Below are positions 13,507-63,559 of a DNA stretch of 64,000 nucleotides, piece after piece; the first letter of the stretch is position 1, and each line of letters begins with the position of its first letter. A model generated the notes under the pieces. It searched no databases. It had not been told where the DNA came from and worked only from the letters and a program-made list of their open reading frames with translations. The DNA comes from a bacterium (lineage in GTDB: Bacteria; Sysuimicrobiota; Sysuimicrobiia; Sysuimicrobiales; Segetimicrobiaceae): positions 36 to 64,035 of the forward strand of contig DASYXS010000165.1 of the NCBI GenBank assembly GCA_035934535.1. The letters are read 5' to 3'. The position numbers and the translations under genes were made by a program.

Positions 13507-13535
13507 GTTGTTGGCGCGCGTCTAAATGCAGGAGT

Positions 13536-13580
13536 ATGGGGGTATGTGGAGAATCGTGGGGTTTCATAGGGATAGGTGGG
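13536..13580 (+). promoter_or_regulatory. MraZ operator: five TGGGG-like direct repeats with exact 10-bp spacing
   Basis: TGGGG at 13536, TGGAG at 13546, TGGGG at 13556, TAGGG at 13566 and TGGGG at 13576, about 130 nt upstream of mraZ. Confidence 0.7.
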
Positions 13581-13610
13581 GGAGACCATCTTTTCATCCC
13601 ACGGCCCAAC

Positions 13611-13678
13611 GCGGCGTCAAGTTCGATGGTGGCCGGCCGCAGACGCTATGGCTCACGCCGTAGGCAGTCGGCCGGCGA
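13611..13678 (+). repeat. palindromic repeat family copy K (loop-expanded, 26-nt loop insert), in the mraZ 5' leader
   Basis: CGGCGTCAAGTTCGATGGTGGCCGGCCGC-[26 nt]-GTCGGCCGGCGAG. Both arms match the ileS copy (53761-53803). Confidence 0.7.
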
Positions 13679-14216: not shown

Positions 14217-15176
14217 ATGCACGTTCCGGTGCTGGTGGACGAGGTGCTCGCGTACCTCGCGCCGCGGCCCGGCGCCGTCATTGTTGATGCGACGCTCGGT
14301 GAAGGCGGGCACGCGGAGGCGATTCTCCGCAAGATCGCGCCCGCCGGCCGGCTGGTCGGCTTGGACCGCGACGGCGAAGCGCTGGCGCGCGCGGAAGAGC
14401 GGCTGCGCCGGTTCGGACAGAACGTGACCCTGGCGCAGGCGAATTTCGGCGACCTGGACGAGGCGCTGAACGTGCTCGGCGTGGGGACGGTGGACGGGGT
14501 GCTGCTGGACATCGGGGTCTCGACGCGGCAGCTCATGGAGGCGGAGCGCGGATTCAGTTTCGACCGCGTCGGGCCGCTCGACATGCGCATGGATCGCGGC
14601 GAGTCCCGGACGGCCGCCGATTTGGTGAACGCGCTGCCGGAGCGCGACCTCGCCGACCTGATCTATCGCTACGGCGAAGAGCGGGCGTCGCGGAAGATCG
14701 CCCGGCAGATCGTGGCGCGGCGTCCGCTGCGGACGACGCGCGACCTGGCGCGCGCCGTCGAGGCGGCGGTGGGCGCGAGCCGCGGGCGGCTGCATCCCGC
14801 GACCCGGACGTTTCAGGCGCTGCGGATCGCGACGAACCGCGAGATCGAGTCGCTCGAACGCGCACTCCCGCAGGCGGTGCGGCGTCTCAGGCCGGGCGGC
14901 CGGCTCTGCGTGATCGCGTTCCACTCGATCGAGGACCGCGTCGTCAAGACGGCGCTCGCACGGTTCGCGCGCGGCTGCACCTGTCCACCCGGGCTGCCGG
15001 AGTGCCGGTGCGGCGGCGAGCGGCTCGTGCGGATTCTGACGAAGAAGCCGGTCACGGCGTCCGCGGCCGAAATTGCGCGCAACCCGCGCTCCCGGAGCGC
15101 GCGCCTGCGCGCGGCCGAGCGGTTGATCGATGCCGGCCGGCCGCCGGCCGGCCGGCAGAGCGGCGCCGCATGCTAG
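14217..15176 (+). CDS. rsmH: 16S rRNA (cytosine1402-N4)-methyltransferase RsmH
   Basis: HVPVLVDEVL, DATLGEGGH, DLGVSTRQL, FHSIEDRVVK and NPRSRSARLR motifs. GTG 14163 is an alternative start. The last ~16 codons derive from a repeat copy. Confidence 0.92.
   Translation: MHVPVLVDEVLAYLAPRPGAVIVDATLGEGGHAEAILRKIAPAGRLVGLDRDGEALARAEERLRRFGQNVTLAQANFGDLDEALNVLGVGTVDGVLLDIGVSTRQLMEAERGFSFDRVGPLDMRMDRGESRTAADLVNALPERDLADLIYRYGEERASRKIARQIVARRPLRTTRDLARAVEAAVGASRGRLHPATRTFQALRIATNREIESLERALPQAVRRLRPGGRLCVIAFHSIEDRVVKTALARFARGCTCPPGLPECRCGGERLVRILTKKPVTASAAEIARNPRSRSARLRAAERLIDAGRPPAGRQSGAAC
15125..15158 (+). repeat. palindromic repeat family copy F, forming the 3' tail of rsmH
   Basis: GATCGATGCCGGCCGGCCGCCGGCCGGCCGGCAG is translated as DAGRPPAGRQS. 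The ileS copy is translated as HGGRPPVGRQE. Confidence 0.5.
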
Positions 15177-15631: not shown

Positions 15632-17529
15632 ACCGGCGCCGTCCGTCACGGCCGCGCCGGCGCCGCCATACCGAGGACGGATCGGGGCCTCCCCGGATTC
15701 GCCTCGGCGCCACGAATCCGCGGGGTGATCGCGCCGCCCCGGGCCAGCCCGATGGCGACGCCCGCCGGCGGCTCGTCGCGTTATCGGGCGTCTGGCTCGT
15801 CGCGCTGGGCCTGCTCGCCGTCCGCATGGTCGATCTGCAGCTCGTCCGCGCCGGTGCGCTCGCGCGGCTCGCGGACCGCCAGCAGGTGGAGTCGCTGCGG
15901 CTGCCCGGCCGCCGGGGACAAATCCTCGACCAGGCCGGCCGCCCGCTCGCGATCAACGTCGAGGTCGATTCCGTCTACGCGGTGCCGAGGGCGATCGACG
16001 ACCCCGGCGCGTTCGCGCGCGCGGTCGGGCCCGCCCTCGGGCTCTCACCCGGCGGGGTGCAGGCGCGGCTGCGCCGCGGCGGCCCGTACTTCGCCTGGCT
16101 CGCGCGGCGGCAGCCCGCCGACGTCGCGGACCGCCTCCGCGCGCTCGATCTCGGCGAGACGGCCGGGATCGTCGCGGAATCGCGGCGTGCGTATCCGGCC
16201 GCGACGCTCGCCGCGAACCTCCTCGGGTTCACCGGCACCGACGACGCGGGGCTGGCGGGCCTGGAGCTCCAGTACGACCGTGTGCTGCGCGGCACCGGCG
16301 GGATCGAGGTGGCCGATCGGGACGCGATCGGCCGGGAGCTCATGCAGACGCAGCGCATCGTCACCCCGCCGCGAGACGGCGCGACGCTCGTGCTGACGAT
16401 CGACGAGGTCATCCAGCACATCGCCGAGCGCGAGGTCGCCCGCGCGGTGGAGCAGAGCCACGCCCGCGCCGGGCTGGCGATCGTCATGGATCCGGAGACC
16501 GGCGGGGTGCTTGCGCTCGCGGCGTCGCCGTCGTTCGATCCGAACCGGTATCAGGACGCGCCGCCGCGGTTGTGGAAGAGCCCCGCGGTCGCCGACGTGT
16601 ACGAGCCGGGGTCGACGTTCAAGCTGATCCTCGCGGCCGCGGCGCTCGACAGCCACGCCGTCACGCTCGCGGACCGGTGGACCGATCCGGGAAAGATTCG
16701 GATCAACGGTGCCTGGATCCATGACGCGGAACCCAACGAGCACTTCGAGTCGCTGGGCCTCGCGGACATCATCAAGTATTCCAGCAACGTCGGCGCGGCG
16801 CAGGTCGCCACGCGGCTCGGGAAGAACGCGATGTTCGCGTACATCCGCCGGTTCGGTTTCGGCCGCCCGACCGGCATCGATCTCCCGGGCGAGGCCGCGG
16901 GCATCGTGCGGCCCGTCGCGCAGTGGTACGGACCGAGCCTTCAGAACATCGCCTTCGGTCAGGGCATCTCCGTGACGCCGATCCAGCTGCTGGTCGCCGC
17001 CTCGTCGTTCGCCACGGACGGCCTCGCGGTGCGCCCGCACGTCGTCGCCGTCATCCGGGACGCCGCCGGCCGGACGATCTCGACGCCGGGCGACGTGACG
17101 CGGCGCCGGCTCATCGATGCAGGGGTGGCCGCGCAGGTGCTCGCGATGATGCGCGAGGTCGTGCGCGCCGGCACCGGCGTCAAGGCGCAGGTCGACGGCT
17201 ACACCGTGGCCGGCAAGACGGGAACCGCCCAGCGTCCCGGCCCGTCGGGCGGCTACGAACCGGGCGCGTACGTCGCGTCGTTCGTGGGCGTCGTGCCGGT
17301 GCCGTCTCCGCGCCTGGCGATCCTGGTGGTGGTCGACGGGCCGCGCGGCGTGTACTTCGGCGGCGACGTGGCGGCGCCGGTCTTCCACGAGATCGCGCGG
17401 CGGGCGCTGTGGTATCTTCGGGTGCCGCCCGAGGAGGCGCCCCAGGCGGCTTCAATGACGCCGCTACCGATGGCGGTGAGTCCGCCGGCGTGGCCGGCCG
17501 CGGGCCGGCCGGCACAGGCCCCGCGCTGA
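15628..17529 (+). CDS. ftsI: penicillin-binding protein 2B/FtsI (class B transpeptidase)
   Basis: ATGA overlap with ftsL. SxxK (GSTFK), SSN (YSSNVG) and KTGT (AGKTGTAQ) motifs are present. Confidence 0.9.
   Translation: MNRRRPSRPRRRRHTEDGSGPPRIRLGATNPRGDRAAPGQPDGDARRRLVALSGVWLVALGLLAVRMVDLQLVRAGALARLADRQQVESLRLPGRRGQILDQAGRPLAINVEVDSVYAVPRAIDDPGAFARAVGPALGLSPGGVQARLRRGGPYFAWLARRQPADVADRLRALDLGETAGIVAESRRAYPAATLAANLLGFTGTDDAGLAGLELQYDRVLRGTGGIEVADRDAIGRELMQTQRIVTPPRDGATLVLTIDEVIQHIAEREVARAVEQSHARAGLAIVMDPETGGVLALAASPSFDPNRYQDAPPRLWKSPAVADVYEPGSTFKLILAAAALDSHAVTLADRWTDPGKIRINGAWIHDAEPNEHFESLGLADIIKYSSNVGAAQVATRLGKNAMFAYIRRFGFGRPTGIDLPGEAAGIVRPVAQWYGPSLQNIAFGQGISVTPIQLLVAASSFATDGLAVRPHVVAVIRDAAGRTISTPGDVTRRRLIDAGVAAQVLAMMREVVRAGTGVKAQVDGYTVAGKTGTAQRPGPSGGYEPGAYVASFVGVVPVPSPRLAILVVVDGPRGVYFGGDVAAPVFHEIARRALWYLRVPPEEAPQAASMTPLPMAVSPPAWPAAGRPAQAPR
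17487..17518 (+). repeat. palindromic repeat family copy H, in the ftsI C-terminal tail
   Basis: GGCGTGGCCGGCCGCGGGCCGGCCGGCACAGG is translated as AWPAAGRPAQA. The arms match the family core. Confidence 0.45.
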
Positions 17530-17599: not shown

Positions 17600-19099
17600 A
17601 TGCGCGCTACTGACCTAGTGGCCGCCTTGGCCGCGGAGGACGGCGGGGCGGCGCCGGCTGTCTCTGTGCTCGGGGACAAAGGCCGCGAGTTCGGCGGGCT
17701 CGCGCACGACTCGCGCAGCGTCCGCCCCGGCGATCTGTTCGCCGCGATCCGCGGCTTCACGCAGGACGGCCATCGCTACGCGGCCGACGCGGTGCGGCGC
17801 GGTGCTGCGGTGCTCCTCGTCGATCATCCGCTCGTCGATCTTCCCGCGACGCAGGTCGTGGTGCCGGACACGCGCCGCGCGTTTGCGGCGGCCGCGGCCG
17901 CCTTCTACCGGCATCCCTCGCGCGAACTGAACTTGTGCGGGATCACCGGCACCAACGGCAAGACTACGACGACCTTTCTCGTCGACGCCATCCTTCGCGC
18001 GGCCGGCCGGCGCAGCGCCGTGATCGGCACGCTCGGCGTTCAGTCGGACGGCGCGCCGGTGGAGTTCCATGCGACCACGCCGACCACGCCCGAGGCGTCG
18101 GACCTGCAGCGGCTCCTGCGCGAGATGCGCGAAGCCGGCGTGCAGGACGTGACGATGGAGGTGACGTCGCACGCGCTCGAGCTGGACCGGGTCGCCGGAT
18201 GCCGGTTCGTCACCGCCGTCTTTACGAACCTGACGCAGGACCACCTCGATCTGCACGGCACGCTCGAGGCGTACCGCGACGCGAAGGCCCGGCTGTTCGC
18301 GATGGTGGAACCCGACGGCGTGTCCGTCGTCAACGCCGACGATCCGTACGGCGGCGCGATGGCGCGGGCCAGCCGCGCCCCGGTGTGGACGTACGGCATC
18401 GACCGGCCGGCGCGGTTTCGCGCGGAAGGGCTCGCGCTCTCGCCGCGCGGGGCGGGGATGACGGTGGTGTGGCCGGAGGGGCGCGTGCCGGTGGCCCTGC
18501 CGCTGCCCGGCCGCTTCAACGTCAGCAACGCGCTCGCCGCCTTCGCGGTCGGGCTCAGCCGCGGCGTACCGGCGGAGACGATCCGTGGTGTGCTCGAGTC
18601 GACGCCGGGCGTCCCCGGACGGTTCGAGCCCGTCGACGAGGGCCAGCCGTTCGCCGTCATCGTGGACTACGCGCACACTCCCGACAGTCTGGAGCAGGTC
18701 CTGCGGCTCGCCGCCGAGATCTCGCCGGGGCGGCGGATCGTCGTCTTCGGCTGCGGCGGCGACCGCGATCGTACGAAGCGGCCGATCATGGGACGGATCG
18801 GGACGACGCTCGCGGACTATGCCTTCTTCACCTCGGACAATCCGCGCGGCGAGGATCCCGAGGCGATCCTGCGCGAGATCGAAGCCGGCGTGCCCGGGGC
18901 CCGCAACTTCTCGAGCGAGGCGGACCGCCGGCTGGCGATCGAGCGGGCGATCGCGCTTGCCGGGCCCGGCGACGTCGTGGTGATCGCCGGCAAAGGGCAT
19001 GAGGCCTATCAGATCGTCGGCGACCACGTGATCGATTTCGACGACCGCGCGGTCGCCCGGGAGGTGCTGCGAGCGCGGTGCGCCGGGCAGCCGCCGTGA
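17600..19099 (+). CDS. murE: UDP-N-acetylmuramoyl-L-alanyl-D-glutamate--2,6-diaminopimelate ligase
   Basis: GGAGGA RBS at 17587-17592. Contains GITGTNGKTTT and the DNPR motif (meso-DAP specificity). Position in dcw supports the call. Confidence 0.92.
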   Translation: MRATDLVAALAAEDGGAAPAVSVLGDKGREFGGLAHDSRSVRPGDLFAAIRGFTQDGHRYAADAVRRGAAVLLVDHPLVDLPATQVVVPDTRRAFAAAAAAFYRHPSRELNLCGITGTNGKTTTTFLVDAILRAAGRRSAVIGTLGVQSDGAPVEFHATTPTTPEASDLQRLLREMREAGVQDVTMEVTSHALELDRVAGCRFVTAVFTNLTQDHLDLHGTLEAYRDAKARLFAMVEPDGVSVVNADDPYGGAMARASRAPVWTYGIDRPARFRAEGLALSPRGAGMTVVWPEGRVPVALPLPGRFNVSNALAAFAVGLSRGVPAETIRGVLESTPGVPGRFEPVDEGQPFAVIVDYAHTPDSLEQVLRLAAEISPGRRIVVFGCGGDRDRTKRPIMGRIGTTLADYAFFTSDNPRGEDPEAILREIEAGVPGARNFSSEADRRLAIERAIALAGPGDVVVIAGKGHEAYQIVGDHVIDFDDRAVAREVLRARCAGQPP

Positions 19100-20601
19100 T
19101 GCCGGTCTCGATCTCCGCCGCCGATGCCGCCCGGCTTGCGGGCGGCGCGGTCGTCCACGGTGATCCCGCGGCGTTCGTCTGCGGCGCCGCGGTCGACAGC
19201 CGGGCGGTCGAGCCCGGGATGCTGTTCGTCGCGCTGCGCGGCGAGCACGCCGACGGCCACCGGTTCGTCGGCGAGGCGCTGCGCCGCGGCGCCGGGGCGG
19301 CGCTGATCGCCGCCGGCGCCCCCGCCAGCGATGTCCCCCCTGCGGGCGCGGTGCTGATCCGGACGGCCGACACGCTGCTCGGGCTGCAGCGCCTCGGCCG
19401 GGGACTGCGGGACCGCCGGCCGCTCCGCGTCGTCGGCATCACCGGCAGCGTCGGCAAGACGTCGACCAAAGAGATGACGGCGCTCGTGCTCGCGGAGCGG
19501 TTCGAGACCGCGCGGTCGCCCGAGAACTGGAATACAGAGATCGGCATCCCGCTCGTGCTCGTCAACCTGCCCGCGGCCGCCTCGGTCGCCGTCCTCGAGC
19601 TGGCGATGCGGGGGCCCGGCCAGATTCGTGAGCTCGTGGAGATCGCCCACCCGCAGATCGGCGTCGTGACGGCGATCGGCGAGTCCCACATGGACTTCTT
19701 TGAGACCCGCGAGCAGCTTGCCGCCGCGAAAGGCGAGCTGATCGAAGGCCTGCCGCCGGACGGGGTCGCGGTGCTCAACGCCGACGACCCGCTGGCGCTG
19801 AGTCTGGCCGGCCGGGGACCGGCGCGCGTGATGACGTTCGGGTTCGGCGAGGCGGACGCCACGGCCCGGGGCGTCCGCATGCGGCCGGGGGAGGGCAGCG
19901 CGTTCGTCCTGCGGGTCGGGGGAGACGAGGCCCCGGCCGCGCTGGCCGTCCCGGGGCGGCACGCGATCCGCAACGCGCTCGCGGCCGCGGCGGTGGGGGC
20001 GGCGCTCGGCATCCCCGCGGCCGAGATCGCGCGCGGCCTCGGCCGCGCGCGCGCGATGCCGAAGCGCCTGGAGGTGCTGCGGCTCGGCGGGGCCGTCGTG
20101 ATCAACGACGTGTACAACAGCAGCCCGCGCTCGATGGAGGCCGCGCTCGACGTGATGGACGAGTTTGCGGGACGGCCGCGGATCGCGGTTCTCGGCGACA
20201 TGCGCGAGCTCGGCGCCCTCTCGATGGAGGTCCACCGTCGGGTCGGACGCGAGGTGGCGCGCCGGGGAATCGACACGCTGATCGCGCTCGGCCCCCTGGC
20301 GGCGGACCTGGCCGGGGCCGCCGGCGAGGCGGGACTGCCGTGCGTCGTGCGCACGATCGCTCCCGCGGAGGCGCTCGACGCGCTGCGGCGCGAGATCCGC
20401 CCCGGCGCCGTGGTGCTGGTGAAGGGCTCGCGGGCGCTGGCGATGGAGCAGATCGTCGACGCCCTCCGGCAGGAGGCCGCGAAGGCGGCCGGAGGTCCCG
20501 CGCAGACGGGGCAGGAGGCCGCGAAGGCGGCCGGAGGTCCCGCGCAGACGGGGCACGAAGCCCCGGCCGTGGACGCCGCGGCGGGCCACCATGTCAGCTG
20601 A
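19099..20601 (+). CDS. murF: UDP-N-acetylmuramoyl-tripeptide--D-alanyl-D-alanine ligase, with an extended repeat-derived C-terminal tail
   Basis: GTGATG junction with murE. Contains GITGSVGKTSTKE and the Mur ligase middle and C-terminal domains. A ~45-aa tail follows the conserved ALAMEQIV end. Confidence 0.9.
   Translation: MPVSISAADAARLAGGAVVHGDPAAFVCGAAVDSRAVEPGMLFVALRGEHADGHRFVGEALRRGAGAALIAAGAPASDVPPAGAVLIRTADTLLGLQRLGRGLRDRRPLRVVGITGSVGKTSTKEMTALVLAERFETARSPENWNTEIGIPLVLVNLPAAASVAVLELAMRGPGQIRELVEIAHPQIGVVTAIGESHMDFFETREQLAAAKGELIEGLPPDGVAVLNADDPLALSLAGRGPARVMTFGFGEADATARGVRMRPGEGSAFVLRVGGDEAPAALAVPGRHAIRNALAAAAVGAALGIPAAEIARGLGRARAMPKRLEVLRLGGAVVINDVYNSSPRSMEAALDVMDEFAGRPRIAVLGDMRELGALSMEVHRRVGREVARRGIDTLIALGPLAADLAGAAGEAGLPCVVRTIAPAEALDALRREIRPGAVVLVKGSRALAMEQIVDALRQEAAKAAGGPAQTGQEAAKAAGGPAQTGHEAPAVDAAAGHHVS
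20470..20553 (+). repeat. perfect 42-bp tandem duplication (2 units), in frame in the murF 3' tail
   Basis: CAGGAGGCCGCGAAGGCGGCCGGAGGTCCCGCGCAGACGGGG occurs at 20470-20511 and identically at 20512-20553. It encodes QEAAKAAGGPAQTG twice. Confidence 0.97.
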
Positions 20602-25536: not shown

Positions 25537-27038
25537 CCGCATCCGGCAGCCATACCGACCCCGCCGCCAGCGGCCTGCCGATTGTCCGGGGCGCGCGCAC
25601 CCATTTCGTCGGCATCGGCGGAGCCGGGATGAGCGGCATCGCCCGCGTGCTGCTGGCGCGCGGCTGCGCCGTGTCCGGCTCCGACCTCCGGGAGAGCGAG
25701 ACGACGCGGCGCCTCAGGGCGGCCGGCGCGGTCGTGTACATCGGACACGCGGCGTCCAACGTCGAGGGCGCCCAGATCGTCATCGTCAGCCGCGCGGTGG
25801 CCGACGAGAACGTCGAGGTGCGCGTCGCGGTCGCGCGCGGGCTGCCGATCGTGCACCGGGCGCGGATGCTGGCCGAGCTCATGCGCGACCGCGACGCGAT
25901 CGCGGTTGTCGGCACCCACGGCAAGACGACGACGACCGCCATGCTCGGCGCGATCCTCGCGCGGGCCGGCCGGGATCCGACCGTGCTGGTCGGCGGCGAC
26001 GTCGCCGCTTTCGGCGGAACCGCGCGCGTCGGGGACGGGCGCGACGTCGTCGCGGAGGTGGACGAGAGCGACGGGTCGCTCGTCTGGGTCGCGCCGTCCA
26101 TCGCCGTCGTGACGCCGCTCGACGCCACCGACCACCTCGACTTCTACGGCTCCGAAGCGCGGCTCATGGAGACGTTCCGGCGGTTCCTCGCCGCCGTGCC
26201 GGCCTCCGGGTTCGCCGCGGTGTGCACCGACGCCCCCGCGGGCCGGGCGCTGGCCCGGGACGCGGGATCGCGCACCGTGACGTACGGGCTCGACGGCGAC
26301 CCGGCGTACCGCGGCCGGGTGCTCGAGGCCGCGGGCCACCGCACCGTCGTCGAAGCTCAGCGCGGCGACGCGGTCGTCGGCCGGATCGAACTGGCGGTCC
26401 CCGGCGCCTACAATGCGCAGAACGCGATCGGCGCGCTCGCCGTCGCGACGGAGCTCGGCATCCCCCAGGACGTCACCGCCGGGGCGCTCGCGGCGTTCGA
26501 GGGCGTCGCCCGCCGGTTCAGCGTGCGCGGCGACGTCGACGGTGTTCTCGTCGTGGACGACTACGCCCACAATCCGACCAAGGTGGCGGCCCTGCTCGCC
26601 GCGGCCCGCCGCGGCTGGCCGGCGGCGCGGATTGTGGCGGTGTTCCAGCCGCACCGGTTCACGCGCACGCAGACCGTGGGCCACCAGTTCGCGCGCGTGT
26701 TCGACCCGGTCGACGAGGTGATCGTGACCGAGATCTACGCGGCCGACGAGCCGCCCATCCCCGGCGTGAACGCGGGGATCATCGTGCGGGCCGTGAGCGC
26801 GCACCGGCCCGTCCGGTTCGTGCCCGATCTCGGCGACGCCGCGGCGCTGGTGGCCGCCGAAGCGCGGTCTGGGGACCTGGTCCTGACAATCGGGGCCGGC
26901 GATGTGTGGAAGGTCGCCGAGGACGTCACCGCGCGGCTGCGGGGACGGTCGGCGGCTCCAGTGTTATCGTTGCCGGGAGCGGAGCGGACGGCAGGTCCGC
27001 CGGCCGCGCCGAGCGGCGCGGAGGCCCCGCGTGGCTAA
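25533..27038 (+). CDS. murC: UDP-N-acetylmuramate--L-alanine ligase
   Basis: ATGA overlap with murG. Contains GIGGAGMSGIA and GTHGKTTTT. The C-terminal ~30 aa derive from a repeat copy. Confidence 0.92.
   Translation: MTASGSHTDPAASGLPIVRGARTHFVGIGGAGMSGIARVLLARGCAVSGSDLRESETTRRLRAAGAVVYIGHAASNVEGAQIVIVSRAVADENVEVRVAVARGLPIVHRARMLAELMRDRDAIAVVGTHGKTTTTAMLGAILARAGRDPTVLVGGDVAAFGGTARVGDGRDVVAEVDESDGSLVWVAPSIAVVTPLDATDHLDFYGSEARLMETFRRFLAAVPASGFAAVCTDAPAGRALARDAGSRTVTYGLDGDPAYRGRVLEAAGHRTVVEAQRGDAVVGRIELAVPGAYNAQNAIGALAVATELGIPQDVTAGALAAFEGVARRFSVRGDVDGVLVVDDYAHNPTKVAALLAAARRGWPAARIVAVFQPHRFTRTQTVGHQFARVFDPVDEVIVTEIYAADEPPIPGVNAGIIVRAVSAHRPVRFVPDLGDAAALVAAEARSGDLVLTIGAGDVWKVAEDVTARLRGRSAAPVLSLPGAERTAGPPAAPSGAEAPRG
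26950..27002 (+). repeat. palindromic repeat family copy B (53-nt long variant), in the murC 3' tail
   Basis: CGGCGGCTCCAGTGTTATCGTTGCCGGGAGCGGAGCGGACGGCAGGTCCGCCG. It is 49/53 identical to the reverse complement of 25055-25107 and shares a 26-nt identical core with 44700-44725. Confidence 0.9.
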
Positions 27039-42728: not shown

Positions 42729-43549
42729 CGTGCCAACCCCTCCTTGGGGCCGGTTCTAATTTCATGTTTGCCGGCCGCATGTCGGCCGGCGGTCAGATCC
42801 GACCCCGTGACTGCGGCCAGTACCATCAACGGCGCCGCGACCGCCCACATCGCCCACCGCTGCTCGGCGAAGCCGCCGATCAGCGCGCCGAGCAGGTACA
42901 CCGCCCACAGCCCCGTCATCAGCGGGGTTCCGCGCTCCGCCCCCTTCTGATGCGGGACCTCCGGCCGCCGCCGAGACGCGGCGTTCTCGGTCCCGGACGC
43001 CGCACCGGTCTGCCGACCCGGGGCGGCGCCGCGCGCCATCCAGCGGTCCAGTAGATCGCTCGCCGTGTCCGTCGCCAACGTCGTAAGCGTTCCCGTGACA
43101 TACGTCGTCGCCACGCGATGCTCGCCGACCCGCCGGACGGTCGCGCTCTGCATGCCCATCGCGGCGGACAGCAAGGCGATCAGCCAGTAGGCCGCCGGTT
43201 CGCCGATGCGCCCGCGCGGCGACCCGAAGAGCACCCACACGGCGATGGCGGCCGCCAGCACCACGGCCTCGACGCCGAGCCCGCGGGCGAGCCGGCCCGC
43301 GACCCGCGTGGCGGCCGTGCCGGCCCCGGCCCCGCAGACGAAGGCGGCAAGCGCAACAATATTGTGCATCGCGTCCGCCCAGGCTTCCCGCCCGACCGAG
43401 AGTCCGAGAAGAATCGTATTCCCCGTCATGTTCGCGGTAAAGAGGCCGAGCGTAAGGTAACCCACCGCATCGAGGCATCCGGCGGCACCCGCGAGCAGCA
43501 GCACGAGCCGCTTGCGTGGTGCCGCCGGCGCGCCGGGCGTCGTCGCCAT
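42725..43549 (-). CDS. DUF1275 (YoaK-like) membrane protein
   Basis: [29 protein letters not shown] motif and about 6 TM helices. Its stop overlaps the fumC start (ATGA). The last ~20 codons derive from a repeat copy. Confidence 0.7.
42751..42793 (+). repeat. palindromic repeat family copy E (43-nt short form), inside the 3' end of the DUF1275 gene
   Basis: CGGTTCTAATTTCATGTTTGCCGGCCGCATGTCGGCCGGCGGT is 33/43 identical, ungapped, to 53761-53803. It has a perfect 8-bp stem, GCCGGCCG/CGGCCGGC, with a 5-nt loop. Confidence 0.85.
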
Positions 43550-44652: not shown

Positions 44653-44660
44653 CGATCCGC

Positions 44661-44732
44661 GTTAATTTCATGGTGGCCGGCCGCTCGGGTTTCATGTTGG
44701 CCGGGAGCGGAGCGGACGGCAGGTCGGCCGGC
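44661..44732 (+). repeat. palindromic repeat family copy C (compound: short left half plus long variant), in the phnD-phnC spacer
   Basis: GTTAATTTCATGGTGGCCGGCCGCTCGG followed by GTTTCATGTTGGCCGGGAGCGGAGCGGACGGCAGGTCGGCCGGC. The 26-nt core is identical to copy B. Confidence 0.88.
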
Positions 44733-44749
44733 ATTCACGGGAGCATCCC

Positions 44750-51738: not shown

Positions 51739-54700
51739 ATGGTATTCCGGCCAGTCGATCCGCGCGCGGATTTTCCGGCGCAGGAGCGCGCCATCTTAGA
51801 CTGGTGGACGCGGGAAGGCATCCTGGCCCGCTACCTCGCGAAGAACCGCGACGCGGCGGCGCGCTGGTCCTTTCTCGACGGGCCGATCACCGCGAACAAT
51901 CCGATGGGCGTGCACCACGCCTGGGGCCGGACGTACAAGGACCTGTTCTGTCGGTACCACACCATGCTCGGCCACCGGCAGCGCTACCAGAACGGCTTCG
52001 ACTGTCAGGGTCTTTGGGTGGAGGTGGAGGTCGAGAAGGAGCTCGGATTCAAGAGCAAGCGGGACATCGAGCAGTACGGGATCGCGGAATTCGTCGAGCG
52101 CTGCAAGGCGCGCGTGCTGCGGTTCGCCGGCGTGCAGACGCAACAGTCGATCCGGCTCGGCTACTGGATGGATTGGGACAATTCGTACTATACGATGTCC
52201 GATGAGAACAACTACAGCATCTGGCTCTTTCTGAAGCGGTGCTGGGAGCGCGGCCTCGTCTACAAAGGCCACGACGTCATGCCCTGGTGCCCGCGGTGCA
52301 GCACCGGCATCTCCGAGCACGAGATCGTCACCGAAGGCTATCAGGAGGTGACGCACCTCAGCATCACCGCGCGCCTGCCGATCGCCGGGCGGGCCGGGGA
52401 GTATCTCCTGGTCTGGACGACGACGCCCTGGACGCTGACGAGCAACGTCGCCGTGGCCGCGCACCCGGACCTCACCTACGTCCAGGTGAAGGAGCGCAAC
52501 GGCGCGAGCTACTACGTCGCCAAGGACCGTCTCGAGGCCACGACGGCCGGCCGGGCGAAAGTCTCGGTCGTGCGCGAGCTGCCCGGGCGCGACCTCGTCG
52601 GGTGGACCTATGAGGGGCCCTTCGACGATCTCCCGGCGCAGCAGGGCGTGACACACCGCGTCATCCCCTGGACGGAGGTGAGCGCGGCCGAAGGCACGGG
52701 CCTCGTGCACATCGCCCCGGGGTGCGGCGCCGAGGACTTCGCGCTCGGCAAGGAGCACGGCTTGGCCGTGCTGGCGCCGATCGACGAGTTCGGCGTGTTC
52801 ACGGAGTCCTTCGGGCGCATGAGCGGCCGGCACGTCTACGAGGTCGCCCCGCTGATCAAGGACGACCTCGAGCGGCGCGGTCTCTTGTACGGCGCGGACG
52901 ACCACACCCACCGCTACCCGATGTGCTGGCGGTGCGGAAGCGAGCTCGTCTTCCGTCTCATCGACGAGTGGTTCATCGCGATGGACTCGCTGCGGGAGCC
53001 GATGATGGCGGTGACCCGGCAGATCACGTGGATTCCGGAGTTCGGGCTCGAGCGGGAGCTCGACTGGCTGCGCAACATGCACGATTGGATGATCAGCAAG
53101 AAGCGCTATTGGGGCCTCGCGCTGCCGATCTACGAATGCAAGGCGTGCGAGACGTTCGAGGTGATCGGCAGCGAGCAGGAGTTGAAGGCGCGCGCCGTCG
53201 AGGGCTGGGACGCCTTTGAGGGCCACACACCGCACCGGCCGTGGATCGACGCGGTGAAGATCCGCTGCCGGAAGTGCGGCGCCGTGGTCTCGCGCATTCT
53301 CGACGTCGGCAACCCGTGGCTCGACGCGGGGATCGTGCCCTTTTCGACGATGTTCTACCGCCAAGATCCCGCGACGTGGCGCGGGTGGTTTCCCGCGGAC
53401 TTCATCACCGAGGCGTTTCCGGGGCAGTACCGCAACTGGTTCTACTCCATGCTGGTGATGAGCACCGTGCTCGAGAACCGGCCGCCGTTCCTGACGTGTC
53501 TCGGCCACGCGATGGTCCGCGACGAGACCGGGCGCGAGATGCACAAGTCCTGGGGCAACATGATCGAATTCAACGACGCCGCGGAGCGGATGGGGTCCGA
53601 CGTCATCCGCTGGCTCTACGCGGTGCAGAACCCGGCCCAGAACGTCAACTTCGGCTACGGGCCGGGCGACGAGGTCCGCCGGCGCTTCGTCCTGCCGCTG
53701 TGGAACGTCTACGCGTTCTTCGTGACCTACGCGAACCTCGACGGCTGGACACCCGGCGGCCGGCTTGACTTACATGGTGGCCGGCCGCCTGTCGGCCGGC
53801 AGGAGGCGCCGCCGTCGCCGCTCGATCGGTGGATTCTGTCGCGGCTCGCGGACGTGATCGCCACCGTCCGGGCCCGGCTCGACGCCAGCGACGTCGCCGG
53901 GGCGGCGCGGCCGATCGAGCGGTTCGTCGACGATCTCTCGCTGTGGTACGTCCGGCGCGGCCGCCGGCGCTACTGGAAGTCGGAGGGCGACGCCGACAAG
54001 CAGGCCGCGTACGAGACGCTGTACGAGGTTCTCGTCACGCTGTCGCGCGTGCTGGCGCCTTTCGTGCCGTTCCTGACCGAGGCGCTGTACCAGAATCTCG
54101 TACGCTCGGTGGACGCGCGGGCGCCGGAGAGCGTGCACCTCTGCCCGATGCCGGCGCCGGACGAAGGGGCGCGGGATCCGCAGCTCGAGCAGGGGATGCA
54201 GCAGACGCGCCATCTCGTCTATCTCGGACGCGCCGCGCGGAACGAGGCGCGGATTAAAGTGCGGCAGCCGCTTGCGTCCGCCACGCTGCTCGACCGATCG
54301 GGTACCGTGGCCGGCCGCCCCGAGCTCATCGAGCTGTTGAAAGACGAACTGAACGTGCGCGAGGTGCGGTTCGCCGGATCGCTTGGAGACATCGGTCGTC
54401 TCGAGGTCCGCCCGCGCTTCGATCTACTCGGCCCGAAGTTCGGCGGACGCATCACCGCGATCGCGGACGCGCTGCGGGCGCAGGGCCCTTCGCTTGTCGA
54501 GCAGACCCCCGACGGCGAGCCGTATCGCCTACGGTTGCCGGGCGGGGAGGAGATCGTGCTCGAGCGCGCCGAGGTCGACGTGCGGATGCGGTGGCGCGAG
54601 GGCCGCGCCGGGGCGGGCGAGGGCGGCGCGTGGGCCGTCCTCGACACCACGGTGACGGAGGACCTCGCCCTCGAGGGACTCGCGCGCGAGCTCATCCATC

Positions 54701-54969
54701 AGGTGCAGCAAATGCGCAAACAGGCGGGGCTCGAGATCGCCGACCGGATCACCCTCTACTACGAAGGCGACGACCGGCTGCCGGACCTGATCCGGAAGCA
54801 CGGCGAGACGATCCTGCGCGAGGTCCTGGCGACCTCCGCGGCTGCGGGCGTGCCCGCCGGTGCGGCGCATACGAAGTCCGTGCGGCTGGATTCGCAGACG
54901 GTGACGCTCGGGATCGCGCGGCTGGAGGCGGCGGCCGTACGGCGGACGAAGCCGGGACCGGTGCAATGA
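51739..54969 (+). CDS. ileS: isoleucine--tRNA ligase (type 2-like, ~1076 aa)
   Basis: GGAGGA RBS at 51725-51730. Has a class I aaRS core with editing-domain and zinc-ribbon insertions (CPRCSTG, CWRCGSE, CKACE, CRKCG). A T-box(Ile) leader lies upstream. An in-frame repeat copy lies inside. Confidence 0.88.
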   Translation: MVFRPVDPRADFPAQERAILDWWTREGILARYLAKNRDAAARWSFLDGPITANNPMGVHHAWGRTYKDLFCRYHTMLGHRQRYQNGFDCQGLWVEVEVEKELGFKSKRDIEQYGIAEFVERCKARVLRFAGVQTQQSIRLGYWMDWDNSYYTMSDENNYSIWLFLKRCWERGLVYKGHDVMPWCPRCSTGISEHEIVTEGYQEVTHLSITARLPIAGRAGEYLLVWTTTPWTLTSNVAVAAHPDLTYVQVKERNGASYYVAKDRLEATTAGRAKVSVVRELPGRDLVGWTYEGPFDDLPAQQGVTHRVIPWTEVSAAEGTGLVHIAPGCGAEDFALGKEHGLAVLAPIDEFGVFTESFGRMSGRHVYEVAPLIKDDLERRGLLYGADDHTHRYPMCWRCGSELVFRLIDEWFIAMDSLREPMMAVTRQITWIPEFGLERELDWLRNMHDWMISKKRYWGLALPIYECKACETFEVIGSEQELKARAVEGWDAFEGHTPHRPWIDAVKIRCRKCGAVVSRILDVGNPWLDAGIVPFSTMFYRQDPATWRGWFPADFITEAFPGQYRNWFYSMLVMSTVLENRPPFLTCLGHAMVRDETGREMHKSWGNMIEFNDAAERMGSDVIRWLYAVQNPAQNVNFGYGPGDEVRRRFVLPLWNVYAFFVTYANLDGWTPGGRLDLHGGRPPVGRQEAPPSPLDRWILSRLADVIATVRARLDASDVAGAARPIERFVDDLSLWYVRRGRRRYWKSEGDADKQAAYETLYEVLVTLSRVLAPFVPFLTEALYQNLVRSVDARAPESVHLCPMPAPDEGARDPQLEQGMQQTRHLVYLGRAARNEARIKVRQPLASATLLDRSGTVAGRPELIELLKDELNVREVRFAGSLGDIGRLEVRPRFDLLGPKFGGRITAIADALRAQGPSLVEQTPDGEPYRLRLPGGEEIVLERAEVDVRMRWREGRAGAGEGGAWAVLDTTVTEDLALEGLARELIHQVQQMRKQAGLEIADRITLYYEGDDRLPDLIRKHGETILREVLATSAAAGVPAGAAHTKSVRLDSQTVTLGIARLEAAAVRRTKPGPVQ
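53761..53803 (+). repeat. palindromic repeat family copy D (43-nt short form), in frame inside ileS
   Basis: CGGCTTGACTTACATGGTGGCCGGCCGCCTGTCGGCCGGCAGG is 33/43 identical, ungapped, to copy E and to the reverse complement of copy J. It is translated as GRLDLHGGRPPVGRQ. Confidence 0.85.
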
Positions 54970-56905: not shown

Positions 56906-57736
56906 ATGAAGCCCGTGCTCTTCCAAATCGGGCCGTTTCCCGTGTCGTCGTTCGGCGTGTTCCTGCTGGCGGCGTTCGTCGCCGGCATTCTGCTGCTGCG
57001 GACACGGACGTTGCGGTGGGGGTGGGACGGCGGGGAGATCCTCGATCTGAGCCTTTATTCGATCATCGGCGGCGTGATCGGGGCGCGTATCGGGTACGTC
57101 CTCGTCAACCTTCGCGACTTTGCGGCCGACTGGGCGCGCGTGCTCACGATCTGGAGAGACGCCGGGCTCACGTTCTACGGGGCGCTCGCAGGCGGCGCCT
57201 TGGTCGCGTGGCTGTACAGCCGCCGCCGCGGGTGGAGTCTCGGATGGCTGGCCGACGCCGCGGCGCCGGGGCTCGCGTTAGGGTACGCCATCGCCATGAT
57301 CGGCACGCTGCTCTACGGGCTCAACTACGGGCGGGCCGCGTCGGTACCCTGGGCGGTCACGCTGTTCGGCGAGCCGCGGCATCCGACGCAGCTGTATCTC
57401 ATGCTCGCGTCGGTTATCATTCTGGCGATCGTGCAGCCGGCCGCGGGCCGTCCGCACGCGCCCGGGCGGGTGTTTTGGGCGTATCTTGGCCTGTACGGGA
57501 TCGCGCGGGCGGTGGTCGAGGTGTTCATGGACAGCCCCCGCGTGGTCGGGCCGCTCACGCTCGCGCAGGCGCTGAGTCTCCTTGTCGCCGTGCTATCGCT
57601 GGTGATGTGGCTCGTGCTCAAGGGACGTCCCGCGGAAACCGGACCCGCCGGCGTGGCGGGCATGGAAGCGGCACCCGACCTCGGCGACGTGGGCGGCGGT
57701 TCGCCGCCGTCCGAACCCGGTGAGCGCCGGGTCTAA
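56906..57736 (+). CDS. lgt: prolipoprotein diacylglyceryl transferase
   Basis: Contains FGVFLLAAF, GGVIGARIGYV and the HPTQLY motif. A GGAGGTGAAGG RBS lies upstream. Confidence 0.9.
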   Translation: MKPVLFQIGPFPVSSFGVFLLAAFVAGILLLRTRTLRWGWDGGEILDLSLYSIIGGVIGARIGYVLVNLRDFAADWARVLTIWRDAGLTFYGALAGGALVAWLYSRRRGWSLGWLADAAAPGLALGYAIAMIGTLLYGLNYGRAASVPWAVTLFGEPRHPTQLYLMLASVIILAIVQPAAGRPHAPGRVFWAYLGLYGIARAVVEVFMDSPRVVGPLTLAQALSLLVAVLSLVMWLVLKGRPAETGPAGVAGMEAAPDLGDVGGGSPPSEPGERRV

Positions 57737-57762
57737 TGCCGGCCGGCCGCGGGCCTGCGGTG
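57727..57762 (+). repeat. possible degenerate palindromic repeat copy G at the lgt/rluD junction
   Basis: CGGGTCTAATGCCGGCCGGCCGCGGGCC resembles copy E, CGGTTCTAAT...TGCCGGCCGC. The right arm has decayed. Confidence 0.3.
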
Positions 57763-57859
57763 CGAGCCAAAGCGCGCCGGCCGCAGTAAGATCGTAGCCG
57801 GTCCCACGATCCATCGGTTCGACGCGGCTGCGGCCGACGACGGGCGCCGGCTCGACGTC

Positions 57860-63491: not shown

Positions 63492-63516
63492 GGAGGGCGG
63501 ACTCACGAACGCGTTC

Positions 63517-63559
63517 GTGCCGGCCGACCGGCGGCCGACGACCATGCTGTCCCAGCCGA
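63517..63559 (-). repeat. palindromic repeat family copy J (43-nt short form, reverse orientation), containing the priA start codon
   Basis: CGTGCCGGCCGACCGGCGGCCGACGACCATGCTGTCCCAGCCG is 33/43 identical, ungapped, to the reverse complement of 53761-53803. Its internal CCATG provides ATG 63544. Confidence 0.8.

Follow-up and report, generated by a model that had tools for sequence, protein, structure and literature searches.

A short, non-autonomous palindromic repeat of REP/MITE-like type has very probably inserted into ileS, the gene encoding isoleucyl-tRNA synthetase, on the lineage leading to the genome analysed here. The insertion lies within a 64,000-nt stretch of DNA (hereafter the window), lengthens the gene in frame and is absent from the corresponding site in related bacteria. 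The features found at this locus, numbered by position in the window, were:

51739-54969, plus strand: ileS, type-2 isoleucyl-tRNA synthetase of 1076 aa, intact (ORF, PDB matches, synteny, dN/dS)
53761-53799, plus strand: net insertion of 39 nt / 13 codons as compared to orthologues, encoding R675-R687 = RLDLHGGRPPVGR (DNA alignments)
53760-53800, minus strand: full 41-nt element copy, GCCGGCCGAC AG GCGGCCGGC C ACCATGTAAG TCAA GCCGG (nhmmer)
53780-53800, no strand assigned: element hairpin, with 8-bp arms at 53780-53787 and 53793-53800 and the loop at 53788-53792 (sequence, RNA fold)
53765-53779, minus strand: non-palindromic tail of the ileS copy, CACCATGTAAGTCAA (consensus MACCATGAAATYRAA; column counts, 42 unique copies)

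A clean 39-nt insertion in the IleS linker

The best PDB matches of the IleS ORF were the IleRS2 of Priestia megaterium (8c8w, E=2e-202) and the IleRS of Thermus thermophilus (1ile, E=1e-183). A protein search recovered orthologues at 85-92% protein identity in soil metagenomes and MAGs, whilst the nearest named relatives, at no more than 68% identity, are labelled Armatimonadota. Orthologue DNA was compared at three loci (L001, L002/L003 and L006), all of which share the gene order of the window: glycosyltransferase, ileS, racemase, DksA-like, lspA, lgt and rluD. Codon-level alignment against these loci revealed one gap only, which covers exactly 39 nt (53761-53799). With a slash marking the insertion point, the empty site of the orthologues reads CCC GGC GGC / AAG ACC GGA, and the filled site of the window reads CCC GGC GGC (CGG CTT GAC TTA CAT GGT GGC CGG CCG CCT GTC GGC CGG) CAG GAG GCG. 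This confirms a clean insertion, missing from all close orthologues found, three of which were also checked as DNA.

The window sequence from 53761 to 53803 is cggcttgacttacatggtggccggccgcctgtcggccggcagg, and its translation in the ileS frame runs ...YANLDGW TPG GRLDLHGGRPPVGRQ EAPPSP LDRWILSRL, the peptide stretch spanned at the insertion being GRLDLHGGRPPVGR. From W to LDRW, the linker measures 24 aa in the window IleS and 11-12 aa in its closest orthologues, about ten of which share the short form TPG(A/G)K(A/T)G(T/A)(P/R)SL; the commonest length among 104 relatives is 14 aa, and the window linker exceeds that of the P. megaterium IleRS2 by 12 aa. A first-pass annotation of this DNA, made from the sequence alone, had proposed an in-frame repeat copy in this linker, a linker of about 26 aa and an excess approximating the length of the element. 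The in-frame copy is borne out, by both the 39-nt gap and the profile match described below (E=7.4e-9), and the excess (39 nt, 13 codons) does correspond to the element; the linker itself measures 24 aa. The empty site that it had suggested seeking in an orthologue alignment was found at all three loci. It had also named relatives conserving the peptide without the palindrome as the case that would speak against an insertion; the inserted peptide was present in none of the 120 best IleS relatives (0/120).

The insertion is present, with no more than one difference, in contigs of three public soil runs belonging to two studies. In one of these runs, depth climbs over the ileS element, as a multicopy sequence would be expected to produce, and the contigs show no 39-nt skip joint, but contigs are uninformative on rare or persisting empty alleles. 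The dN/dS of the window ileS against insert-free orthologues is 0.12-0.15, as compared to 0.14 between two insert-free orthologues, indicating that the gene is not decaying; by this measure, purifying selection on ileS persists despite the insertion.

We then modelled IleS with AlphaFold2 from a 68-sequence alignment (mean pLDDT 72.9, pTM 0.60), obtaining a prediction of moderate quality overall and good quality around the loop. In the model, a helix at 640-667 ends at YANLDGW, a coil spans 668-693, and a second helix at 694-715 starts at LDRWILSRL. The helices beside the loop have pLDDT values of 84-97, and the only low-confidence stretch near it, 676-688 (pLDDT <50), coincides with the inserted residues 675-687. 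The 13 added residues are modelled as a disordered coil at the entrance to the anticodon-binding domain, in agreement with the first-pass annotation, which had placed the linker ahead of this domain and suggested that it be modelled. In the same 68 aligned relatives, as in the window IleS, the class I HxGH motif is replaced by GVHH (residues 57-60) and KMSKS by EMHKS (residues 600-604); GXHH is the non-canonical IleRS2 signature tied to mupirocin hyper-resistance (PMC10485003).

Unrelated inserts were observed in the same linker of two other relatives: a 21-nt tandem repeat encoding PPAGRQIPPGGRQVPPG in L004 (12023-12107), and a self-complementary insert of ~70 nt in L005 (11225-11324). Together they point to the IleS loop as a general insertion hot spot. 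Membership of these two inserts in the window repeat family, or in another dispersed family, was rejected, as only short chance matches were obtained.

A dispersed family of short hairpin repeats

The consensus of the family, derived from 42 unique short copies, is Y/GCCGGCCGAC-NN-GCGGCCGGC-M-ACCATGAAAT-YRAA-GCCGG, with conservation ending after position 41. Its 36-nt core consists of an 8-bp GC hairpin and then the tail MACCATGAAATYRAA, usually followed by GCCGG, which most family copies have at their 3' side. Elements are ~70% GC and 36-41 nt long, with long forms of ~60-72 nt that have a 25-40-nt loop (e.g. CCTGGGCCTGCGGCGCGAGCCAAAG). Copies are solitary or form head-to-tail arrays with a period of 36-37 nt and no spacers, and a CRISPR array was rejected on these grounds.

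The ileS copy agrees with the consensus at 38 of 41 positions, and its three differences imply that it is either not very recent or derived from a variant source. An nhmmer profile of the short form, built from the 42 other copies with the ileS copy left out, matches the latter on the minus strand at 53803-53758 over model positions 2-47, that is, at full length (34.9 bits, E=7.4e-9). Comparison of the copies in the window, L001 and L006 also places the true orientation of the element at ileS on the minus strand, whilst a third GGCCGGC at 53758-53764 permits an alternative hairpin pairing. The hairpin pattern occurs eight times in the 64-kb window against 0.07 expected, which, together with the full-length profile match, shows that the repeat match is not due to chance. 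The non-palindromic tail is the diagnostic part of the family, and its sharp conservation rules out hairpin convergence as an explanation. Judged by sequence, the ileS insert is a full-length minus-strand copy of this dispersed repeat family.

Scanning JGI metagenome contigs for the exact pattern gave 81 loci in 0.61 Mb, nearly all at 0.66-0.73 GC and many from samples that also hold IleS orthologues. At least 75 distinct good copies are present in ~0.8 Mb of related soil-metagenome DNA, and ~8 copies or fragments in the 64-kb window. A 16-base pattern, GGCCGGCNANCATGAAAT, was discarded as a probe of genome contigs, where it gave 119 chance matches in unrelated taxa, none with the hairpin. Besides the ileS copy, the window holds the following family members and hairpin-only sequences:

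13612-13677, minus strand: long-form copy upstream of mraZ, loop CCTACGGCGTGAGCCA... (profile search, alignment)
15135-15158, no strand assigned: hairpin-only sequence in the rsmH C-terminal tail (DAGRPPAGRQS), of doubtful family membership (nhmmer E=0.35)
17490-17516, no strand assigned: hairpin-only sequence in the C-terminal tail of a penicillin-binding protein (WPAAGRPAQ, other frame; nhmmer E=0.033)
42748-42792, minus strand: short-form copy at the start of a DUF1275 gene (nhmmer E=1.8e-12), with an orthologous copy in L006 at 2032-2075 (E=1e-13)
44655-44734, minus strand: long/composite copy between phnD-like and phnC-like genes (profile search, alignment)
57736-57800, plus strand: degenerate long-form copy between lgt and rluD (comparison with L001 and L006)
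63516-63546, plus strand: partial copy (hairpin and ACCATG) at the priA start or immediately upstream of it (nhmmer E=2.4e-4)

The occupancy of these sites differs between relatives. The phnD-phnC copy is a 72-nt insertion (~44661-44732) that L002 and L006 cleanly lack, and the long form upstream of mraZ is missing in L207 and L208, where the empty site is less clean. At the lgt-rluD site, L001 has a short form, L006 a long form and the window a degenerate long form, whilst the partial copy at the priA start has an orthologous copy in L002 (E=2.1e-5).

Several minor observations concern individual copies. In L006, the DUF1275 gene is called with its start at the ATG inside the element tail ACCATGAAAT (2047-2049), and the element-tail ATG at window positions 63544-63546 shares its frame with the priA ORF; the element may provide genes with start codons. 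It also supplies C-terminal tails in L195 and L144. A 58-nt variant with the loop CTGCCGTCCGCTCCGCTCCCGGC, common to 26947-27004 and 44690-44734 (83% identical), seems to represent a subfamily of the element or a nested form.

Intragenic copies and their reading frames

Under a strict test, in which both sides had to show an open frame of at least 150 nt with the GC signature of coding DNA, a coding ORF spans 12 of the 69 unique copies that could be assessed; a looser gene-map test returned 28 intragenic copies out of 71, giving an intragenic share of 17-40%. Pfam domains lie on both sides of the insert, or span it, in a transketolase (L176), a biotin carboxylase (L167) and CtaA-CtaB (L166), and on one side, with the insert at the domain edge, in GlyS beta (L141), DnaE (L162), NuoL (L151) and FdhD (L205). 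When compared to PDB 8cip, the transketolase copy corresponds to a 19-residue gap ahead of the PELILIATGSEV motif. In-frame copies, as read from these ORFs and domains, evidently recur in other housekeeping genes. The remaining copies are intergenic, for the most part flanked by co-directional genes, and their orientations are biased 12:5.

The consensus is open in five of its six frames, and all five are used by intragenic copies in related contigs, in both orientations, yielding the peptides AGRxAAGxHEIxAG, PADxRPATMKxKP, GRLxxHGGRPxVGR, ISWLPA and FxFMVAG; the sixth always has a TGA, from CATGAAAT. The ileS frame is in the minority among intragenic copies. Half of the common tail variants, with A at position 34, give TAA or TGA in this frame, where the ileS copy has GAC; fixation was therefore possible only for a variant without a stop.

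The first-pass annotation had suggested tolerance of, or selection for, the element in a single translatable frame, citing a copy at the rsmH 3' end with the same frame and peptide as in ileS. Given the use of five frames in both orientations, a single favoured frame is not supported, and the hairpin in the penicillin-binding protein is itself read in a different frame. The peptide DAGRPPAGRQS had been correctly read at 15125-15158, but the rsmH site holds the hairpin half only and lies in a C-terminal tail that is variable among close relatives, making it weak evidence for a shared frame. We rejected the rsmH tail as a true element copy in view of its E value of 0.35 and of the alignment with L207 and L208, in which there is no clean empty site. 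This tail (15120-15176), an indel hot spot located between AAERL(I/L)D and (G/V)AAC-stop, ranges from 0 to ~20 residues among 86-92% relatives, of which one (L207) terminates LLDVAC. Coding compatibility as a design of the element was also rejected, as five open frames out of six is, by our own estimate, close to chance for a 41-nt sequence of 70% GC.

Origin of the insert and relation to known repeats

Under the insertion that we propose, the element would have entered next to a Y/GCCG-like site, on the strand opposite ileS, and its target would have been codons of the loop joining the catalytic body to the anticodon-binding helical domain. As the net gain is 39 nt and the ileS frame contains no stop, the element would add 13 translated residues to a disordered surface loop, with which the enzyme presumably keeps functioning; the added peptide is probably a tolerated passenger without function. 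In element orientation, both clean empty sites are T/GCCG (CTT/GCCGCC in ileS, AAT/GCCGAT in phn), which suggests a target preference. The element ends are GCCGGC...GCCGG, and a 4-nt target-site duplication at T/GCCG is inseparable from these GCCG ends.

Three other accounts of the 13 residues were weighed against this insertion. They could be an ancestral functional part of IleS, such as a lineage-specific contact with tRNA or a partner, matched to the repeat by a coincidence of GC-rich sequence. Such a reading could draw on the natural variability of the linker, in which other relatives have other long inserts, and on the fixation of the insertion in several soil populations. It is, however, contradicted already by the empty sites, and further by the restriction of the peptide to this genome among the 120 best relatives, by the 11-12-aa linker of the ~10 closest orthologues, by the full-length match of the DNA to the dispersed family, AT-rich tail included, and by the modelled disorder of the segment; we consider it very improbable. 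An origin within the locus itself, with slippage or duplication occurring in a GC-rich tract, or else an assembly artefact, is less probable still. The insert does not duplicate its flanks, agrees with the family consensus at 38 of 41 positions and is carried by independent assemblies (other runs, another study) with at most one difference, even if the flanking GGCGGC/GGCCGGC tracts could promote slippage and a 21-nt tandem repeat is found in the linker of other relatives (L004).

Alternatively, the hairpin could be kept for a role at the RNA or DNA level in ileS, with the peptide as a by-product; it might terminate or attenuate transcription inside the gene, be cut by an RNase or serve as a palindrome bound by a protein. 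This is improbable, albeit the least so of the three. Either strand could form a stable GC hairpin, and the position of the intergenic copies, mainly between co-directional genes with their 12:5 bias, would be in line with such a role. Yet the stem is followed by the tail ACCATGAAAT and no T-run, and no terminator-like or promoter-like site is present in 53400-54200, which led us to reject both an intrinsic terminator and a promoter. The RNA fold of the ileS hairpin (-31.8 kcal/mol, z=-1.9 vs shuffles) is unexceptional given its composition, other copies have z ~0, no Rfam family matches the segment, and copies are found in many unrelated genes in both orientations. A known RNA family was rejected for the window as a whole, in which Rfam 15 at gathering score matched RNase P only; this sole match is a bacterial class A RNase P RNA at 311-662 on the plus strand (296 bits).

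Returning to the insertion of a mobile repeat, the family may have spread by transposition catalysed in trans, the likeliest agent being an enzyme that acts on single-stranded DNA hairpins, e.g. a RAYT or an IS200/IS605-type HUH transposase. In ~0.8 Mb of fragments, neither the surroundings of copies nor the stretches between inverted pairs yielded a transposase, and thus we infer mobility from the distribution of the copies only. In L195, L144 and L148, the ORFs enclosed by inverted pairs of the element proved to be ordinary genes, and a regular expression for HUH and YxxxNP(V/L)(R/K)AG gave no match in six-frame translations of the sampled ~0.8 Mb of fragments. That the family constitutes an undescribed class of ultra-short mobile hairpin element, with a 36-nt core (a multiple of three) and unusual compatibility with coding sequence, is a tentative idea that we regard as unlikely. 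Were it true, the element would regularly furnish essential enzymes of a soil phylum with new surface loops, and its mover would be a transposase or mechanism not yet tied to REP-like repeats.

REPs are extragenic by definition and have a GTAG head at the 5' foot of the hairpin, and their RAYT is a Y1 HUH transposase whose gene is flanked by inverted copies. The family described here shares with REPs and REPINs short GC-rich imperfect palindromes, a conserved non-palindromic flank, a high copy number, a position mostly between co-directional genes and an occurrence in clusters or arrays. It differs from REPs in that 17-40% of its copies are intragenic, in the lack of a GTAG head (position 0 is only Y) and in a conserved flank located 3' of the hairpin (ACCATGAAATYRAA). 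No RAYT gene was found in the sampled ~0.8 Mb of fragments. MITEs are usually 50-500 bp long, with clear terminal inverted repeats and target-site duplications; the element is shorter, has no more than the self-complementary GCCGGC as termini, and any duplication is inseparable from its ends, whilst like MITEs it is a non-autonomous repeat inserting in or beside genes. The bacterial MITEs Correia, ERIC, BOX and RUP are summarised in PMC10969869 as non-autonomous elements that insert in or next to genes, with occasional in-frame fusions.

In its behaviour the family resembles the Rickettsia palindromic elements (RPE), albeit in a new lineage and with a much shorter element that falls outside the RPE family. 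As outlined in PMC10969869, citing work of 2000 and 2002 (Ogata et al. 2000 Science 290:347; Ogata et al. 2002 Genome Res PMC186582), RPE are selfish palindromic repeats translated in frame at tolerated positions of many housekeeping proteins. RPE are ~100-150 bp long, ten families of them are distinguished (RPE-1 to RPE-10), and their hosts are obligate intracellular Alphaproteobacteria. Both are dispersed palindromic repeats found between genes and in frame within many unrelated housekeeping genes, both are translated as extra segments at fold-compatible positions, and both show presence/absence differences between relatives. In-frame insertion at structurally tolerated sites, as in RPE, is seen here in the ileS loop and in 11-27 further intragenic copies. 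Length, composition and host nonetheless set the family apart, at 36-41 nt (long forms up to 72), GC-rich and in an uncultured, free-living soil lineage, and its encoded peptides are too short for the helical module proposed for RPEs.

We found no publication that connects such repeats with this lineage. Selfish palindromic DNA that settles in frame in essential genes is known above all from Rickettsia, and the copies described here show the phenomenon in free-living high-GC soil bacteria as well, with a far shorter element. The natural loop insertions in IleS, GlyS, DnaE, transketolase, NuoL, biotin carboxylase and CtaA mark permissive sites in these enzymes. For annotation, repeats of this kind lengthen proteins and may supply start codons and C-terminal tails, and they can pass for lineage-specific functional motifs.

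Two further features of the window were observed. A perfect tandem duplication of the 42-nt unit GGCAGGAGGCCGCGAAGGCGGCCGGAGGTCCCGCGCAGACGG at 20468-20551, near the 3' end of the ORF at 19003-20601, would add 14 residues in frame. Upstream of mraZ, a block at ~13530-13590 contains TGGGG motifs ~10 nt apart, conserved in L207 and L208, which look like MraZ operator boxes.
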